DNA of 64,000 nt from the UHGV virus genome UHGV-0286546. One strand, written 5' to 3'. The stretch is from a virus. Below the pieces are notes generated by a model. That model saw nothing but the letters and a program-made list of their open reading frames with translations, ran no database searches and was not told where the DNA came from. Made by a program: the position numbers and the translations under genes. Positions 26,054 through 36,531 of the stretch are shown piece after piece; positions within the stretch are counted from its first letter, which is position 1; the number at the start of each line of letters is the position of its first letter.

Positions 26054-26343
26054 AATTCATAGGTTTAGCGTTAGAAAAAGATTATGCAAAGGCAGATACT
26101 TGTTGGATCGTCGCATTGAATCATATCGCAAAACACCTATTTAATCCTAAGACCCCTATGCCGGTAATTAAAAATCTCGTAGAATTACTTTGTGTTATTG
26201 ATTATGATGGCAATGAACTTATAAACGATTGGATGACAGACTTAAAAAGTAGAAACGGCAATAAAGAATACTTGGCACGATTAAATGTGATTTGTCCAAT
26301 TATTATCAAAGAACAAAAGAAACTCGAAAAAGGAAACAAATAA
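26035..26343 (+). CDS. hypothetical protein (start ambiguous: 25990/26035/26047)
   Basis: ORF overlapping previous gene; internal ATGs give shorter overlap. Confidence 0.45.
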   Translation: MVRKMLKFIGLALEKDYAKADTCWIVALNHIAKHLFNPKTPMPVIKNLVELLCVIDYDGNELINDWMTDLKSRNGNKEYLARLNVICPIIIKEQKKLEKGNK

Positions 26344-26344
26344 T

Positions 26345-27460
26345 ATGTATATACTAAATGACATCCAATTAGATTATAATGATGTTTTAATTGCACCACA
26401 AACAACTACTATTAATCATAGGGGCGAAGTAGAGATTATTAGAAATTTTAAAACACTTCGAAAAGATGTCGGTGGCCATCATGAAGAATTTAATTGTTGC
26501 CCGGTTATGAATGCTAATATGACACAAACTGGTACTTTTGAATTAGTTGCTGAATTATTAAAAAATGATATGATCGGTTGTATTCATAAATTTTACACCG
26601 TAGAAAAAATTCGTGAATTCTGTGAGCAAAACACAACAGATAATAGATTTTTTATTACGATCGGTTTGCGCAATTGGCAATCTGAAATTCAAAAGTTAAA
26701 AGATTGTAACAAATATAAATGGTCTATTCTTATCGATGTACCGAATGCATATATTCCAGAAGTAGAAAATTTAGTTAAAGAAGTACGTAAAGAATTTCCA
26801 GATAGAATAATTGCTGTAGGTAATGTTTGTACTGGTGACCGTACTCAAGAACTAATTAAAGCTGGTGCAAATATTGTAAAGGTTGGCATTGGACCTTCTG
26901 CAGTATGTCGAACTCGTCATACAACTGGCTGTGGTCGTCCACAATTATCAGCAGTCATCGATTGTGCTAATGCTGCGCATCAAGTTGGTGGATTAATCAT
27001 TGCTGATGGTGGTTTTACAATGTCCGGTGATCTATGTAAAGCTTTTGTTGCTGGCGCAGATATTTGTATGTCTGGATCAATGTTTGCTGGTTGTGATGAA
27101 GCTGCAGGTCAAGTAATCAATAAATGTTTTCGTACATCTGTTTATTCTATGACAGAAAAAGAAAACGAATTCGGTGATATTATTTGTGAACACGATAAAC
27201 CACAATTTGAAATTAAACAATTTAAAGAATATTATGGTATGTCTAGTTTTAGAGCGCAATACGAAAATTATGGTCAAAAAACTAAAACTGGAACTTCTGA
27301 AGGAGTAGAAAGTAAACTTATTCCTTATACTGGACCAGTTATAGATACAATTAACAATATTAAAGGTAGTTTAAGAAGCTGTGGTAGTTATATTGGTGCA
27401 AAAAATATTAAGTATTTTTCTAGACAAGGTACTTTTTATAGAGTGAATAGGATTCAATAA
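26345..27460 (+). CDS. GMP reductase / IMP dehydrogenase-family enzyme lacking CBS subdomain (371 aa)
   Basis: Catalytic loop KVGIGPSAVCRTRHTTGCGRPQLSAV and IADGGFTMSGDLCKAFVAGAD...MSGSMFAG match IMPDH/GMPR TIM-barrel signatures; no CBS insert, so GMPR-like. Confidence 0.75.
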   Translation: MYILNDIQLDYNDVLIAPQTTTINHRGEVEIIRNFKTLRKDVGGHHEEFNCCPVMNANMTQTGTFELVAELLKNDMIGCIHKFYTVEKIREFCEQNTTDNRFFITIGLRNWQSEIQKLKDCNKYKWSILIDVPNAYIPEVENLVKEVRKEFPDRIIAVGNVCTGDRTQELIKAGANIVKVGIGPSAVCRTRHTTGCGRPQLSAVIDCANAAHQVGGLIIADGGFTMSGDLCKAFVAGADICMSGSMFAGCDEAAGQVINKCFRTSVYSMTEKENEFGDIICEHDKPQFEIKQFKEYYGMSSFRAQYENYGQKTKTGTSEGVESKLIPYTGPVIDTINNIKGSLRSCGSYIGAKNIKYFSRQGTFYRVNRIQ

Positions 27461-27625
27461 ATATAAAATGAAACAATTAAATATATCATGGATTGGATTG
27501 GTATATACTGTATTATTACATGCTTAGCTCAGTATACAGTTTCAACAAAACTTAAAAAAGGTTTTACAAATAAATTTTTTTGGTGTATATATACATTCAA
27601 TAAATGACGAAAGGAAATGTTAAAA

Positions 27626-27991
27626 ATGACACCTAACCAAAACAGAACGATTCATAGAGTTATTTCTGTATTCGGTGAAAAAAATCAACAGATGCAAGCA
27701 ATAGAAGAATTAATGGAACTTCAACGTGCGGTATTTGAAAATGTACACCGAGGAACAGACAACAGAGACAATATCGTAGAAGAAATTGCAGACGTAGAAA
27801 TCATGTTGACACAGCTTAAAAGAATTCATAATATTGATCAAAATGAAATCGAAGCAATTCAAGAGCATAAATTGAACCGTCTCGATCATACAATAGAAAA
27901 ATATTTGGCAAAACAACAGTCGAAAAACAATTCTATTGAAAGTAAACAGGTTGACATTCAAATCGATAGAAATACCTCTAACGGTAGATAA
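27626..27991 (+). CDS. MazG-like nucleotide pyrophosphohydrolase (start moved to ATG with better RBS spacing)
   Basis: EELMELQRAVFEN ... VEEIADVEIMLTQL matches the two EExx(E/D) helices of the MazG/NTP-PPase family. Confidence 0.65.
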   Translation: MTPNQNRTIHRVISVFGEKNQQMQAIEELMELQRAVFENVHRGTDNRDNIVEEIADVEIMLTQLKRIHNIDQNEIEAIQEHKLNRLDHTIEKYLAKQQSKNNSIESKQVDIQIDRNTSNGR

Positions 27992-28005
27992 AGGGAGAAA
28001 TATAA

Positions 28006-28200
28006 ATGTTTTTAATTAAGAATACAAAAAGATCTTATAACTGTTATCTTTCTGACGAAGGTAAATGGGCAGGATTGTTAATTGCCAAAGTTTTCGAAAA
28101 TAAAGAAGACGCAGAAAAAGTTTGTTCAGAAGACGGAAAAGTTATTTCTTGGAATGAAGCGACTGGTTTATATTTAAAAGATTCAAACGAACAAAATTAA
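28006..28200 (+). CDS. small hypothetical protein (64 aa)
   Basis: ORF with RBS AGGGAG. Confidence 0.45.
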   Translation: MFLIKNTKRSYNCYLSDEGKWAGLLIAKVFENKEDAEKVCSEDGKVISWNEATGLYLKDSNEQN

Positions 28201-28356
28201 TTAAAAAAAAATAATTATTATAAAAACTTTTCTAAAAATACTGTTCTAATGACTATGATTATACGTACTGAAAATAATAATAGTTTAGCGACAGATTTAG
28301 AAAAGCCTACAATCTGGCGACGTATTGTAATATAAAAACTGAATTTAAATATATGA

Positions 28357-28400
28357 AGTACGCCCCAGAAAAAAAAAATAAAAAAAATTCTGGGGTTTAT
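28357..28400 (+). terminator. terminator-like hairpin (CCCCAGAA-A-rich loop-TTCTGGGG + T run)
   Basis: Inverted repeat followed by TTTATTTTTTTC. Confidence 0.5.
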
Positions 28401-28535
28401 TTTTTTCGGTTTTACAAATAATAAATTTTCAGATATAAAATAATCATTCAAGAGTCAATAAAATGATTCTTTAGTTATAAGACATTGTGAATAGGAAATA
28501 ATATTAAACGAATTAGCCTTGGCAGCTAAACTGTT

Positions 28536-28574
28536 ATGTATTTGCCAAATAAAACAGAATATAAATATACATAA
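28536..28574 (+). CDS. candidate 12-codon leader mini-ORF (MYLPNKTEYKYT) upstream of tRNA cluster A
   Basis: ATG TAT TTG CCA AAT AAA ACA GAA TAT AAA TAT ACA TAA; codons largely match downstream tRNAs (Met, Leu, Pro, Asn, Thr-TGT, Glu); weaker case than 37719 and 43174 (see findings). Confidence 0.3.
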   Translation: MYLPNKTEYKYT

Positions 28575-28662
28575 CACCGGTAGTCTTAACGTTTATCTTA
28601 ACCGGCCTAGAGGGTAAAAGTAGATGTTTTTACTTAAAAATCTACGAAAGAAGCGTATCTAT

Positions 28663-29397: not shown

Positions 29398-29485
29398 GCC
29401 GACTTGCCAGAATTGGTTGAATGGAACGGATTTGTAATCCGTCGGAGTAATCCCATTGCAGGTTCGAATCCTGTGGTCGGCACCA
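29398..29485 (+). tRNA. aberrant class-II-length tRNA (88 nt), anticodon TGT (Thr) in a perfect 5-bp stem/7-nt loop but with a 15-nt extra arm; Tyr (GTA) register does not fold
   Basis: Acceptor GCCGACT/GGTCGGC, anticodon arm ACGGA-TTTGTAA-TCCGT, T-arm GCAGG-TTCGAAT-CCTGT, CCA encoded. Confidence 0.5.
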
Positions 29486-30062: not shown

Positions 30063-30548
30063 ATGAAAATATACACAGACGCCAGTACAAGAAGTAATCT
30101 TTCAGGTTTAGCGTTTATAGTTACTGATGCGAAGAACAAAGTGCAATGTAGAAGAGCGTCTGTTGTAGAAGAAAAAGATAATAACACTGCAGAATTGAGA
30201 GCAATATGTTATGCATTGGCGTATACTAAGTCTGTTGATGAGCCTGTTGTATTAATGACAGATTCAACATATGCGATACAGGCGATAAGAGGTGGATATC
30301 ATAGACCTAATGAAGAAAAATTAATAAACTATATTCATGCTCATATGAAAAATAGAAAGTGTAATATATTTTGGGTGAAAGGACATAACAAAGATGGTAC
30401 TGTCCTTTCTTATTTTAATAAAGAAGCAGATAAGTTAGCAAAACACGTTAGAAAAGAATATGAATATAGTGTAGCTAAACAAAAGAAAATAGATAAACAA
30501 AAAAGATTAGAAGCTGCATTGGTATCTAAGAAAGGAAAAAATAGATGA
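30063..30548 (+). CDS. ribonuclease H (RNase HI-like, 161 aa)
   Basis: Catalytic DEDD pattern: IYTDAST, TAELRAICYAL, LMTDSTYAIQ, WVKGHNKDGTVLSYFNKEADKLAKH. Confidence 0.75.
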   Translation: MKIYTDASTRSNLSGLAFIVTDAKNKVQCRRASVVEEKDNNTAELRAICYALAYTKSVDEPVVLMTDSTYAIQAIRGGYHRPNEEKLINYIHAHMKNRKCNIFWVKGHNKDGTVLSYFNKEADKLAKHVRKEYEYSVAKQKKIDKQKRLEAALVSKKGKNR

Positions 30549-31123
30549 GGACCATAGACTTTTATACAGTTAAAGAAAGTGGTGCAAATATAAATAGAGT
30601 TATATATCATGTTGAAAATTCTGATATTGCTCTTATTAGTGCTTTTCGTTCTGATTCTTCGAAAAAACAAAATTTAGAAAATAATAAAAGATTAGCATTA
30701 GATATACATAATATTGGATTATCGTATATAAAAGTTACTGGTAATTATAAAGAAGAAAATAATTCAGAATTTACAACCGAAGATAGTTTTATAGTAATTC
30801 ATCGTCCAGAATCAAATAAAGCACAAGATGAATTTTTTGAAGAAATGCTTGGATTATGTAGAAAATATAATCAAGATGCAGTATTAATTAGTTTAAAAAA
30901 TCGAAAAGATGTCCCTATTGCTTCGTATGATAGTAATGGAAAAATTGTATATGGTCCATTTACTAAACTTACACTGAGTAATATAGAAGATTTTTATACT
31001 AGAATCCATAATCATAGGTTTAAATTTGAAAGCATTGTAGAATCAGAAGAAGGTATAAAACCGAGCGGATATTCAAATGCCATGCGATATTATGGAACAA
31101 AAGCTTTATTAAAATTAAAATAG
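30545..31123 (+). CDS. hypothetical protein (192 aa); leaderless paralog of 31592..32329
   Basis: Shares FFEEMLGLCRKYNQDAVLISL block with 31592..32329 (FKEEMLALGRKYNQETILLKL). Confidence 0.55.
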   Translation: MRTIDFYTVKESGANINRVIYHVENSDIALISAFRSDSSKKQNLENNKRLALDIHNIGLSYIKVTGNYKEENNSEFTTEDSFIVIHRPESNKAQDEFFEEMLGLCRKYNQDAVLISLKNRKDVPIASYDSNGKIVYGPFTKLTLSNIEDFYTRIHNHRFKFESIVESEEGIKPSGYSNAMRYYGTKALLKLK

Positions 31124-31591: not shown

Positions 31592-32329
31592 ATGTCAAAA
31601 TTTAAAGAAGTAGTAGAAAATGCTTTAAAAGAAAGAGGATTTTCTTTACAAAAACTAACAAATAATCTTGAGATAGATAGTCCGATATGTACGTGTTTTA
31701 TAACTGCATATTTAGAAACAAATGACAAGGAAACAAATATTGCTAATAACAACAAATTAGAATTAAATATTGTATCTCTCGGTTATGAATACGGTTATAA
31801 AAAAATCCTTGGTGGATATGTTTATTCAAATGGAACTTTTGCTAAAGAGCCTGGATTTTTAGTATCTTGTAAAAGAACTAATGTATTACCTGAAGATTTT
31901 AAAGAAGAAATGTTAGCTCTTGGCAGGAAATACAATCAAGAAACTATTTTACTAAAGTTACCAGGAGAAAAACCAGCTTACTATAATACCAGAGGTAATA
32001 AAATAGATGAAAAGGATATTGAATTCGCCTTTACAAAGCAGGTAGATCCAACAAAACCGAAAACACTTTATCCAAATGAAATTACAGCTTGGAGTAAAGG
32101 ATATACTCAATTACAAAAAGATGCAAACAAAGGTAAAAATCAAGCTATTGAATTGACCAATGAAAACTCTTCTGTTTTTGAATCGTTGATATTGACTGAT
32201 GAAGAAATCAATGAATTAAAAGAAGATACCAGAGAAAAATGTTTTTGTAGTGGCTCTGGGATATTAAGAATGGCTGCCTGTAGAGAACATTTGGGTTTAG
32301 AACCTTATCCTTGTCTCAAAAAGCGGTAA
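31592..32329 (+). CDS. member of MS(K/R)F(K/R)TIVEN-leader paralog family (245 aa)
   Basis: N-terminus MSKFKEVVENAL; body homologous to 30545..31123. Confidence 0.6.
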   Translation: MSKFKEVVENALKERGFSLQKLTNNLEIDSPICTCFITAYLETNDKETNIANNNKLELNIVSLGYEYGYKKILGGYVYSNGTFAKEPGFLVSCKRTNVLPEDFKEEMLALGRKYNQETILLKLPGEKPAYYNTRGNKIDEKDIEFAFTKQVDPTKPKTLYPNEITAWSKGYTQLQKDANKGKNQAIELTNENSSVFESLILTDEEINELKEDTREKCFCSGSGILRMAACREHLGLEPYPCLKKR

Positions 32330-34562: not shown

Positions 34563-34650
34563 GGAGGAATGGCAGAGTGGCTTAATGCAGCGGTTTACTA
34601 AACCGTCGTACCGAAAGGTGCCGTGGGTTCAAATCCTACTTCCTCCGCCA
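34563..34650 (+). tRNA. class II tRNA (88 nt, Ser-like architecture) with non-canonical anticodon loop TTACTAA (ACT by standard register)
   Basis: Acceptor GGAGGAA/TTCCTCC, anticodon arm (G)CGGT-TTACTAA-ACCG(T), variable-arm hairpin GTACC-GAAA-GGTGC, T-arm GTGGG-TTCAAAT-CCTAC, CCA encoded. Confidence 0.5.
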
Positions 34651-34657
34651 ATTTATT

Positions 34658-34751
34658 AGGTCTGTCGTTCAATGGTTAGGACACTAGGCTTATACCCTAG
34701 CGAGCGTCTGATTAACGCGAAATCCCAGTTCGAGTCTGGGCGGACCTACCA
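34658..34751 (+). tRNA. 94-nt tRNA-like gene: anticodon arm CTAGG-CTTATAC-CCTAG (TAT) followed by a 23-nt extra arm that itself looks like an anticodon stem-loop (GCGT-CTGATTA-ACGC)
   Basis: Acceptor AGGTCTG/CGGACCT, D-arm GTTC-AATGGTTA-GGAC, T-arm CCCAG-TTCGAGT-CTGGG, CCA encoded. Confidence 0.45.
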
Positions 34752-34971: not shown

Positions 34972-35046
34972 TATTATTTCCGGTTTTACAATATTTTTAA
35001 CAAGACATATATTTGTTTATAGATTAACAGAAAAAAGGAAGTGGAT

Positions 35047-36531
35047 ATGTCTGATAATAAAACAATGACTGAAAAAGGTGCTATTACTAATCAATCTACA
35101 TTAGACAAAGTTGTAGATTGGTTTTATCATGGAGCCGCATTACGTAGAGAAAAAAACAAAGACCGTATTATAGCTTTGTTTGATGATGCTTTTAAACAGG
35201 ATAAAACCAAAGCATTGCGTATTTTATTTTATATTCGTGATATTCGTGGTGGTCAAGGTGAAAGACGCATTTTTAGAATTTGCTTAAATCATTTGGCAAA
35301 AATAGAATCTGCTTGGTTAAAAGACAATTTGGCATTAATTGCTGAATACGGCAGATATGATGATTATTTGTGCTTGCTTGATACAGAAATTAAAAGTGCT
35401 GTAATTGATTTCGTTAAAGCACAATTAGATAAAGATATTGCTGCAATAGATAGCAATACACCTATTTCATTGCTTGCCAAATGGATGCCTTCCGTTACAA
35501 CCAAGAATAAAGAAAAAAGAAGATATTTAAATGCTCTTTTGAATTCTGGTAAATTTGGCACAGTAAAAAATTATAGACAAACGTTATCTAAACTTCGTGA
35601 TAAATTAAATATTGTTGAAAAGAATCTTTGCAATAAAGCCTTTGCTGAAATTGAATATTCTAAAGTTTCTTCTAATGCAATGTCTAAGTATTCAAAAACT
35701 AGAATTTCATCTGGATTAGCTGGTACTTTTTGGCGCAATGACTTAGATAGATTTAAAATGTATTTAGACGCTGTTAAAAACGGTAAAACAATCGACGGCA
35801 AAGAAGTAAAAATAAATGCAAAAACCTTATATCCATATGATGTTATTACAAAATATATGAGTGGTTATAGTATAAGTCATCAAGAAGATCCTGCAGCGGA
35901 AGCTCAATGGAATGCTTTACCTGATTATGTACCAGAGATTAACGGCATTGTAATTTATGATACTTCGGGTTCAATGTATGGATTACCTATGGCTGTATCT
36001 TTGTCGTTGGCTATTTATATTGCTGAAAGAAATAAATCAGAAGTTTGGCGTAATTATGTTATTCCATTCTCATCTAATGCGACTTGGAAAAAAGTAAAGG
36101 GTAACAATTTAGTAGAAAAAATTGAATCTATTTATACTGGAGATTGTTCAAATACTAATTTACAAGCAGCCTTTGATCTTATTTTAGGTAAAGCTATATA
36201 TGCGCAAGTACCTAAAGAAGATATGCCAAAACAGCTGATTATTATTAGTGATATGGAATTTGATTCGGTTTCTTCTAATAACCAAACTAATTATGAAGCT
36301 ATAAAAAGCAAATATAAGAAAGCTGGTTATGACTTACCACAATTAATCTGGTGGAACGTTGAATCAAGAAGCAATCAAACACCGATTACAGTAAATGATA
36401 AAAATTGTTTATTGCTTTCTGGCTGTTCACCGGTAGTTATGCAAGTAGCTTTGGGTGGTTCATACGATTTTATGGAAGCAATCGATAAAATTATTAACCA
36501 AGAACGTTATAGTTGCATCAATTATAATTAG
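35047..36531 (+). CDS. von Willebrand factor A (vWA) domain protein with DUF2828/TROVE-like N-terminal region
   Basis: MIDAS motif IVIYDTSGSMYG; N-terminal ALRILFYIRDIRGGQGERRIF block reminiscent of DUF2828-type proteins (uncertain); ATG at 35047 preferred over GTG at 35041. Confidence 0.6.
   Translation: MSDNKTMTEKGAITNQSTLDKVVDWFYHGAALRREKNKDRIIALFDDAFKQDKTKALRILFYIRDIRGGQGERRIFRICLNHLAKIESAWLKDNLALIAEYGRYDDYLCLLDTEIKSAVIDFVKAQLDKDIAAIDSNTPISLLAKWMPSVTTKNKEKRRYLNALLNSGKFGTVKNYRQTLSKLRDKLNIVEKNLCNKAFAEIEYSKVSSNAMSKYSKTRISSGLAGTFWRNDLDRFKMYLDAVKNGKTIDGKEVKINAKTLYPYDVITKYMSGYSISHQEDPAAEAQWNALPDYVPEINGIVIYDTSGSMYGLPMAVSLSLAIYIAERNKSEVWRNYVIPFSSNATWKKVKGNNLVEKIESIYTGDCSNTNLQAAFDLILGKAIYAQVPKEDMPKQLIIISDMEFDSVSSNNQTNYEAIKSKYKKAGYDLPQLIWWNVESRSNQTPITVNDKNCLLLSGCSPVVMQVALGGSYDFMEAIDKIINQERYSCINYN

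Follow-up and report, generated by a model that had tools for sequence, protein, structure and literature searches.

According to the textbook rule, the class II tRNAs of bacteria are those for Leu, Ser and Tyr, plus the selenocysteine (Sec) tRNA. Bacterial allo-tRNAs are class II tRNAs with the anticodons of other amino acids. The nev-tRNAs of nematodes are also class II bodies with an anticodon outside the Leu/Ser/Tyr set (PMC3333845). By their published descriptions, nev- and allo-tRNAs keep a Leu or Ser identity and mistranslate. Closest to the gene analyzed here is an 87-nucleotide (nt) tRNA-Thr(UGU) of T5-like phages other than T5 itself, called tRNAT and present in Salmonella phage 5 (AJ604531) and, among others, in phages ende, IME178 and HildyBeyeler, the last of which is BASEL phage Bas33. 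This form is already known: in the T5 group its sequence has been determined, its annotation is tRNA-Thr, and it has been engineered as a suppressor. Here we describe an 88-nt class II tRNA-Thr(UGU) gene at positions 29398 to 29485 of a 64,000-nt stretch of the virus genome UHGV-0286546 (the window, whose numbering is used throughout), and we compare it with these systems.

The T5-like 87-nt tRNA is ~85% identical to the window gene, and the 3-bp D-stem, TTTGTAA loop, GGAGTAATCCC extra arm, T-arm, A73 and CCA all match. The two differ by compensatory changes in the acceptor and anticodon stems, by C41 instead of A41 in the window copy, and by one extra D-loop nucleotide. Their carriers are unrelated: a ~245-kb jumbo phage of myovirus type for the window gene versus 110-kb siphoviruses of T5 type. 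At the syntenic site in the tRNA block, where phage 5 and Bas33 have the class II gene, T5 proper has a 75-nt class I tRNA-Thr(UGU) whose body is unrelated to that of the window gene, although the anticodon and the presumed job, replacement of the host tRNA-Thr(UGU), are common to both. The experimental results obtained with T5 are therefore not directly transferable to the class II form. With the canonical bacterial Leu, Ser and Tyr tRNAs the window gene has in common a long variable stem-loop and a 3-bp D-stem; its D-loop is Ser-like, and its extra-arm layout resembles that of Tyr or Leu tRNAs, with the likeness to the short arm of Escherichia coli tyrU judged by eye. In contrast to these tRNAs, its acceptor-end signature and anticodon are those of Thr. 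A precedent for one identity on both architectures with a single synthetase is found in Streptomyces coelicolor, where type I and type II tRNA-Leu are reported to be charged by one leucyl-tRNA synthetase (LeuRS) (PMC6614811). The direction is opposite, in that an identity usually built on class II has a class I version as well, and the case is cellular rather than phage.

Gene, fold and amino-acid identity

The segment is a genuine phage tRNA gene that reads ACA and carries an extra arm. ARAGORN called tRNA-Thr(tgt) at exactly 29398-29485 on the plus strand (88 nt, anticodon at position 36). With the Rfam tRNA model RF00005, whose gathering score is 29, the gene reached 52.6 bits (E=4.7e-9), and R1, a covariance model built from other family members (a gap-free alignment of 25 sequences), gave 86.8 bits (E=8e-24); the same model gave only 54 and 47 bits on the window's own Ser and Tyr tRNAs. 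The acceptor, anticodon, extra and T arms all form in the minimum free energy (MFE) fold. The acceptor stem has 7 bp, including a U7-G66 wobble, and is followed by U8 and G9; in the D-stem, G13 and A22 are not Watson-Crick paired, a layout common across the family. With a variable region of more than 10 nt that forms its own stem-loop, and with a 3-bp D-stem, the gene belongs to class II. An earlier sequence-only reading of this DNA had described the 88-nt class II body with its encoded CCA, and this is borne out by ARAGORN, Rfam and direct reading. The TGT anticodon that it placed in a 7-nt loop on a 5-bp stem stands as well, by ARAGORN and the sequence, as does the 15-nt extra arm, since software did not assign a standard variable loop. 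The Tyr (GUA) register, which had been judged unpaired, was rejected here too, as its flanking stem would be CGGAT/CCGTC, whose strands do not pair. No meaningful open reading frames (ORFs) overlap the gene, a scan for promoters and terminators around it returned matches at chance level only, and no tRNA-repair enzymes were recognized in the window's tRNA region.

By sequence, the acceptor end matches class I tRNA-Thr and not the Ser, Leu or Tyr tRNAs. Of 80 distinct sequences of the family described below, 79 have G1-C72 and every one has C2-G71. Pairs 3-70 to 7-66 show free variation, and at the discriminator position 66 sequences have U and 12 have A. The class I tRNA-Thr genes from the same loci have the same acceptor signature and discriminator pattern, and this was replicated in a second class I set. 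The Ser controls have G2-C71 (62/65), G73 (46/65) and A3-U70; the Tyr controls have G2-C71, G3-C70 and A73; and the Leu controls have A73 without exception (36/36). Thr identity, as reviewed in PMC9976931, resides in acceptor-stem pairs and the anticodon, with a weak contribution of N73, and C2-G71 is an antideterminant for seryl-tRNA synthetase (SerRS). In the window gene, G1-C72, C2-G71 and the anticodon bases G35 and U36 are all present. It does not carry the Ser signature, having C2-G71, C3-G70 and A73, and of the Tyr features it has A73 alone, with anticodon UGU, C2-G71 and C3-G70 at the other positions. Bacterial Leu identity takes A73 together with a Leu-type D-loop and tertiary core and makes no demand on the anticodon; the window gene has this A73, whereas most of the family has U73, and a Leu identity keeps a low probability in view of the suppressor note cited below. 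E. coli thrU and the window gene have the same 5' acceptor strand, GCCGACU, and their anticodon arms are distinguished by stem pair 29-41 and position 32.

Codon usage agrees with this assignment. ACA is the phage's top Thr codon (196/442 in 19 long ORFs). At the 16 ACA positions of the DnaB helicase, Thr makes up 44% of residues from 77 homologs of 45 to 60% identity, versus 34% at ACT positions; one ACA site is Thr in 77 of 77 homologs, and neither Leu nor Tyr is enriched at ACA positions. Taken together, the acceptor signature, the likeness to thrU, the usage of ACA and the alignment of ACA with Thr make it most likely that the tRNA accepts threonine on its class II body, and they do not support the identity switch that the sequence-only reading had raised as a possibility. 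We put the probability that it is a functional, threonine-accepting class II tRNA supplying ACA decoding at roughly 0.75. Since the acceptor identity matches the anticodon, in contrast to the nev- and allo-tRNAs, no recoding is predicted, and the DnaB alignment of 77 homologs holds no recoding signal at ACA.

The anatomy of the tRNA is modular. A Thr-type acceptor top (G1-C72, C2-G71) and anticodon (G35, U36) are mounted on a class II core, in which the D-stem has 3 bp, the D-loop is Ser-like and a GNRA tetraloop closes the short extra arm. The host threonyl-tRNA synthetase (ThrRS) would charge this elongator tRNA with threonine, and, presuming that it is expressed, it would decode ACA in a jumbo phage of 31% GC. 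The phage would thus have its own supply for ACA decoding, independent of the host tRNA-Thr(UGU). The divergent body may also make it a poor substrate for defenses that cut or inactivate tRNA-Thr(UGU), such as nucleases of the PARIS/AriB type. The proposal of a chimeric or specialized tRNA, made from the sequence alone, holds in the sense that a thrU-like acceptor stem and anticodon arm are joined to class II D-, extra and T-arms; the molecule is modular and specialized.

Relatives in phages and bacterial chromosomes

The gene is not the aberration it had been taken for, as it is kept in four strains of the same phage, in 97 records of cultured phages and in a large viral and cellular family. 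The four strains, retrieved through a DnaB helicase 99% identical to the window's, have a copy identical at 87 of 88 positions; the sole difference lies in the extra-arm tetraloop, which is GUAA in the window and GCAA in the strains, each of the GNRA type. Among cultured phages, the tRNA alone matches 104 records, of which 97 cover at least 80% of the gene. These 97 are 81 to 87% identical over positions 7-88, come nearly all from T5-like Salmonella and Escherichia phages and are annotated as tRNA-Thr. A comparison with orthologous phage tRNAs, as proposed earlier, thus returned the same class II form in the strains and in the T5-like phages.

A pattern scan of IMG/VR (the TTTGTAA loop followed by GGTTCGAATCC at class II spacing) yielded at least 120 loci, on contigs of 4 kb to 412 kb, in which ARAGORN called at least 107 long tRNA-Thr(tgt) genes, at least 79 of them distinct. 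When both spacings were allowed in a second scan, ~30 class II genes were found versus 81 class I genes, so that the class II share is about one-quarter of the sampled phage Thr(UGU) genes with the searched motifs. In the gap-free alignment of 25 sequences, 97.4% of cells are paired, versus 32 to 43% when the 3' partners are slid; both sides change in 19 of 23 pairs, and all five helices covary, including the D-stem (3/3 pairs), the anticodon stem (5/5) and the extra arm (3/3, with 86.7% of extra-arm cells paired). In these family statistics the anticodon loop and T-loop are fixed by the search pattern, and ARAGORN preselects sequences with the four main arms paired. Features relevant to translation are kept in the family, namely the Thr identity pairs, the 7-nt loop, the T-loop, the D-loop GG and CCA. 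The extra arm consists of 1 nt, a stem of 3 to 4 bp with a loop that is usually GNRA-like, and 3 to 4 unpaired nt. For 59 of the 80 members, the Ser type is the nearest match to the D-arm.

A copy in another genome lies on a 283,511-bp contig (CASEYV010000001.1, locus L165) binned as "uncultured bacterium", where the tRNA is identical to the window gene at 86 of 88 positions. The two loci are 98% identical over 93 nt including flank and have nothing else in common within 8 kb, which suggests, by sequence comparison, that the gene has moved horizontally between large phage-like genomes. A tRNA-Ser(UGA) gene with an identical 20-nt T-arm segment adjoins the class II Thr gene of L165.

The class II form is also found in cells. 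In a scan of bacterial and archaeal genomes, ARAGORN called at least 38 class II tRNA-Thr(tgt) genes; among the matches listed are Spirosoma isolates, Eremiobacterota chromosomes, and metagenome-assembled genomes (MAGs) of Kiritimatiellia and Acetobacteraceae. Several Spirosoma species and isolates have identical copies, with contigs as long as 2.6 Mb. At the loci examined in Spirosoma and Eremiobacterota, the chromosomal neighbors are ordinary and phage genes are absent; around one of each (L130 and L134) are genes for DUF349, amidase-like and amylase proteins and for PQQ-repeat and GNAT proteins. At the Eremiobacterota locus L134, the class II gene adjoins Tyr(gta)-Gly(tcc)-Thr(ggt), and E. 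coli has the same gene set in thrU-tyrU-glyT-thrT, upstream of tufB. The Spirosoma and Eremiobacterota genes are apparently native, judging from these surroundings. The literature searched yielded no account of class II tRNA-Thr, of how common it is in phages or of its occurrence in bacterial chromosomes, which is weak evidence because subscription journals, including the older T5/BF23 tRNA papers, lay mostly outside coverage.

Table 1. Parts of the window tRNA gene, comparison genes and neighboring features. Positions are in window numbering or, where a locus is given, in that of the locus
Feature	Locus	Positions	Strand	Basis or remark
tRNA-Thr(UGU) gene, class II, 88 nt including encoded CCA	window	29398-29485	+	ARAGORN; Rfam RF00005; family model R1; sister strains
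Acceptor stem, 5' strand GCCGACT (G1 and C2 are Thr identity positions)	window	29398-29404	+	sequence; pairs with 29475-29481
D-arm, 3-bp stem CCA/TGG, loop AATTGGTTGA with G18-G19	window	29407-29424	+	sequence; family covariation
Anticodon arm, stem ACGGA/TCCGT, loop TTTGTAA	window	29426-29442	+	sequence; stem covaries
Anticodon TGT (UGU), reads ACA	window	29433-29435	+	ARAGORN; 7-nt loop on 5-bp stem
Variable region CGGAGTAATCCCATT, 15 nt: C, GGA, GTAA, TCC, CATT	window	29443-29457	+	sequence; MFE fold
Extra-arm stem GGA/TCC	window	29444-29446/29451-29453	+	
Extra-arm GNRA tetraloop GTAA	window	29447-29450	+	
T-arm, stem GCAGG/CCTGT, loop TTCGAAT	window	29458-29474	+	sequence; family covariation
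Acceptor 3' strand GGTCGGC, discriminator A73 (29482), CCA (29483-29485)	window	29475-29485	+	sequence
tRNA 86/88 identical to window gene	L165	7482-7569		
Phage 5 class II tRNA-Thr(UGU), 87 nt	L001	1495-1581		
Bas33 class II tRNA-Thr(UGU), 87 nt	L338	19995-20081		
T5 class I tRNA-Thr(UGU), 75 nt	L337	8668-8742		
Bas33 long-armed Asn tRNA, 86 nt	L338	14771-14856		
Hena1 class II tRNA-Trp(CCA), 87 nt	L344	289-375		MN732867
Long-armed Asn tRNA	L003	97-179		
Long-armed Cys tRNA	L032	1179-1262		
Long-armed Lys tRNA	L069	1678-1763		
Long-armed His tRNA	L063	1606-1693		
Spirosoma class II tRNA-Thr	L130, L145, L168			
Eremiobacterota class II tRNA-Thr	L131, L134, L135, L167, L175, L200			
Kiritimatiellia class II tRNA-Thr	L150, L152, L159, L164			
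Acetobacteraceae class II tRNA-Thr	L129, L136, L148			
IMPDH-family dehydrogenase region	window	~26300-28600		equivalent region compared in L340-L343
S-adenosylmethionine lyase family gene	window	31592-32329		
S-adenosylmethionine lyase family gene	window	30545-31123		homology to L341
Ser-type tRNA body, anticodon ACU	window	34563-34650		ARAGORN
tRNA-Ile(UAU) call, 94 nt	window	34658-34751		
496-aa protein, DUF2828/DUF7788	window	35041-36531		PHROGs "RNA-binding protein"

Carrier phage and gene neighborhood

The carrier is a ~245-kb jumbo phage of myovirus type that probably infects a gut or rumen gammaproteobacterium and has no close cultured relative. This placement follows from the contigs of the four strains (L340 to L343), which reach ~245 kb and are binned as Succinivibrionaceae, a label from one source. 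A megablast search with 25 kb of window DNA returned no match, and the window's tail sheath is only ~25% identical to those of T4-type phages. Within the window there are 20 tRNAs, and the gene described here is the only tRNA-Thr among them.

The surroundings of the tRNA block differ among the strains. The window, L341 and L343 have an uninterrupted gene for an IMPDH-family dehydrogenase; the L340 and L342 copies are divided, and an ORF that faintly matches NUMOD3 lies between their parts. ORFs of the HNH or LAGLIDADG type come and go near the start of the tRNA block among the strains, and the neighborhood looks like one with homing-endonuclease traffic. Just downstream of the first tRNA cluster lie S-adenosylmethionine lyase family genes. 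Enzymes of this family are known for anti-restriction functions, and there are hints that this region is rich in counter-defense genes.

Two further tRNA calls in the window are unusual. One is a Ser-type body (GGAGGAA..., G73, long arm) to which ARAGORN assigns the anticodon ACU; for bacteria, an A34 that looks unmodified, as here, is uncommon, and the phage mainly uses AGU among its AGY codons (128 versus 29). The other is the long tRNA-Ile(UAU) call, with an extra region of ~24 nt, directly upstream of the gene for the DUF2828/DUF7788 protein. Ile(tat) calls of 90 to 97 nt recur in other phage loci, and at the window call Rfam matched no family besides tRNA.

The class II body and anticodon nucleases

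The body of the window tRNA is not confined to the Thr isoacceptor. Erwinia phage Hena1 has an 87-nt class II tRNA-Trp(CCA), found also in pEa_SNUABM_56 and IT22, whose core (D-arm, anticodon stem, extra arm and T-arm) matches the window gene at ~84% identity across positions 14-77, with an identical anticodon stem. Its acceptor stem, AGGGAGG/CCUCCCU, has A1-U72, G2-C71 and G3-C70, and the discriminator is G73. This acceptor and G73 we take to be the bacterial Trp identity set. On the class II Thr model, the Hena1 tRNA-Trp scores 70.5 bits, long Cys tRNAs 62 to 69 bits and long Lys and Asn tRNAs 60 to 62 bits, all above canonical Ser and Tyr tRNAs. Moreover, the phage loci L003 to L125 hold many tRNAs of 82 to 99 nt with extra-arm hairpins and anticodons that are normally class I, namely those for Asn, Cys, Lys, His, Trp, Gln, Gly, Glu, Met and Ile(UAU). 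Taken as sequences, these suggest a common class II chassis on which the identity modules can be exchanged. The idea that the Thr gene arose when another class II tRNA gene of the same genome was duplicated, for instance Ser(UGA) to Thr(UGU) by the single change A36U, was considered and rejected, as the class II Thr genes of L165, Bas33 and the window are only 55 to 64% identical to the co-resident Ser, Tyr and Leu genes. The D-arm looks Ser-like, and the extra arm Tyr- or Leu-like.

What is known of the PARIS defense bears on a possible use of such a body. AriB depletes host tRNA-Thr(UGU), and the T5 tRNA-Thr(UGU), together with T5 tRNA-Lys and tRNA-Asn, counters PARIS/AriB toxicity; T7, which has no tRNAs, is rescued only with both T5 tRNA-Lys and T5 tRNA-Thr, and Bas33 is rescued by tRNA-Lys alone (PMC12409363). 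In the same study, the AriB site was placed at U36AAUC|A41, AriB was modeled to contact D-loop U16-U17 and positions 40-41, the authors concluded that features distal to the anticodon loop are read, and replacing A41 of tRNA-Lys by C "substantially inhibits" cleavage. Bas33 is without tRNA-Lys(UUU), and its sole tRNA-Thr is the class II gene. Its rescue by tRNA-Lys alone would therefore mean that the class II tRNA-Thr supplies ACA decoding while AriB is active. The Bas33 tRNA keeps the exact cleavage-site sequence of thrU, U36-A-A-U-C-A41, and because this site is unchanged any resistance of the tRNA would reside in the body. The window copy reads U36-A-A-U-C-C41, with C at the position equivalent to that changed in tRNA-Lys, and E. 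coli thrU has A41.

A part in nuclease evasion is, on this analysis, plausible for the window tRNA, provided that it acts as a nuclease-insensitive replacement. That much of the link to anticodon nucleases drawn in the sequence-only reading may stand, on indirect evidence; the decoy proposed there does not. Such a decoy, or competitive inhibitor, would soak up host anticodon nucleases and would not serve mainly in translation. The idea can appeal to the anticodon arm, which closely mimics host thrU, and to the suggestion that overexpressed viral tRNAs possibly inhibit AriB by competition (PMC12409363). However, the full set of translation-relevant features is conserved, the gene is the only tRNA-Thr both among the window's 20 tRNAs and in Bas33, and it matches the phage's most used Thr codon, and we consider a decoy very improbable. 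Whether the class II body is itself an adaptation against defense is a separate matter, and we consider it possible but at well below even odds. No likelier is the general form of the idea, that phages and a few bacterial lineages graft class I identities onto a class II chassis (most commonly Thr(UGU), but also Trp, Cys, Asn and Lys), the extra arm and remodeled D-arm keeping recognition by synthetase, EF-Tu and ribosome while evading enzymes that read the class I tRNA shape, those of the PARIS/AriB type and other defenses included; the window gene would then be one instance.

Several findings pull away from a threonine-accepting tRNA whose body protects it. The T5 tRNA-Thr assayed against PARIS is an unrelated class I molecule, so its result was rejected as direct evidence for the class II family; the genome-encoded tRNA-Thr is insufficient for T5Mos (PMC12409363); and the Bas33 argument is indirect. 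Because class II tRNA-Thr(UGU) genes lie in ordinary bacterial chromosomes, the extra arm need not be an anti-defense adaptation. The ACA comparison covers one protein and 16 codons, with homologs translated by the standard code. In addition, the GenBank note on the phage 5 class II tRNA states that, with a different anticodon put in, it "converts into effective amber suppressor", which suggests that the body can be charged without the Thr anticodon, and there may be some non-Thr charging of the A73 subfamily.

This last point, together with the class II body and A73, speaks for an identity-switched or ambiguously charged tRNA, in which LeuRS, tyrosyl-tRNA synthetase (TyrRS) or SerRS would charge such a body and ACA would be read partly as another amino acid; according to GenBank, the class I tRNA-Thr of T5 undergoes no such conversion. 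C2-G71, however, is invariant in the family, a Thr determinant and a listed antideterminant for SerRS; the prevailing U73 agrees with neither the A73 of Leu and Tyr nor the G73 of Ser; the window anticodon is not the GUA of tRNA-Tyr; and it is Thr, rather than Leu or Tyr, with which ACA positions align. We therefore regard a switched identity as highly unlikely, if slightly less so than a decoy. A pseudogene or software false positive, for which one can cite the non-canonical architecture for a UGU anticodon, is scarcely credible, given that Rfam, ARAGORN and the independent family model all detect the tRNA, that the gene is kept across strains although its 3' flank diverges in L340, and that every helix shows compensatory changes across the family. 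The most serious competitor is an ordinary tRNA-Thr for codon supply, its extra arm without adaptive role and inherited from a lineage that also exists in bacteria and has been passed among phages. The chromosomal setting in Spirosoma and Eremiobacterota, once beside housekeeping Tyr-Gly-Thr(GGU) genes, is in keeping with it, as are ACA as the top Thr codon of a genome of 31% GC and the fact that L165 has only this tRNA in common with the window, which suggests horizontal spread. Against it stand the one-quarter share of class II among sampled phage Thr(UGU) genes, the recurrence of the chassis in phages with Trp, Cys, Asn and Lys identities, which suggests that the body itself is favored in phages, and the Bas33/PARIS argument, which speaks against a neutral arm. 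We hold a neutral arm to be possible but on the whole unlikely. The threonine-accepting class II tRNA that supplies ACA decoding is the reading we prefer.

The rule on long arms is thus routinely broken for the UGU isoacceptor of Thr, in about one-quarter of sampled phage genes and, as apparently native genes, in the chromosomes of Spirosoma and Eremiobacterota. Pipelines for annotation or tRNA-seq that assume class I length for Thr could mishandle such genes. ThrRS would have to tolerate the long extra arm, which bears on the rules of tRNA identity and on the engineering of orthogonal tRNAs. Since host tRNA-Thr(UGU) is a prime target of PARIS, the class II Thr family offers a testable case of whether a change in the body, and not in the anticodon loop, shields a tRNA from immune nucleases, and Bas33 is a cultured E. 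coli phage in which such body-based protection is testable.

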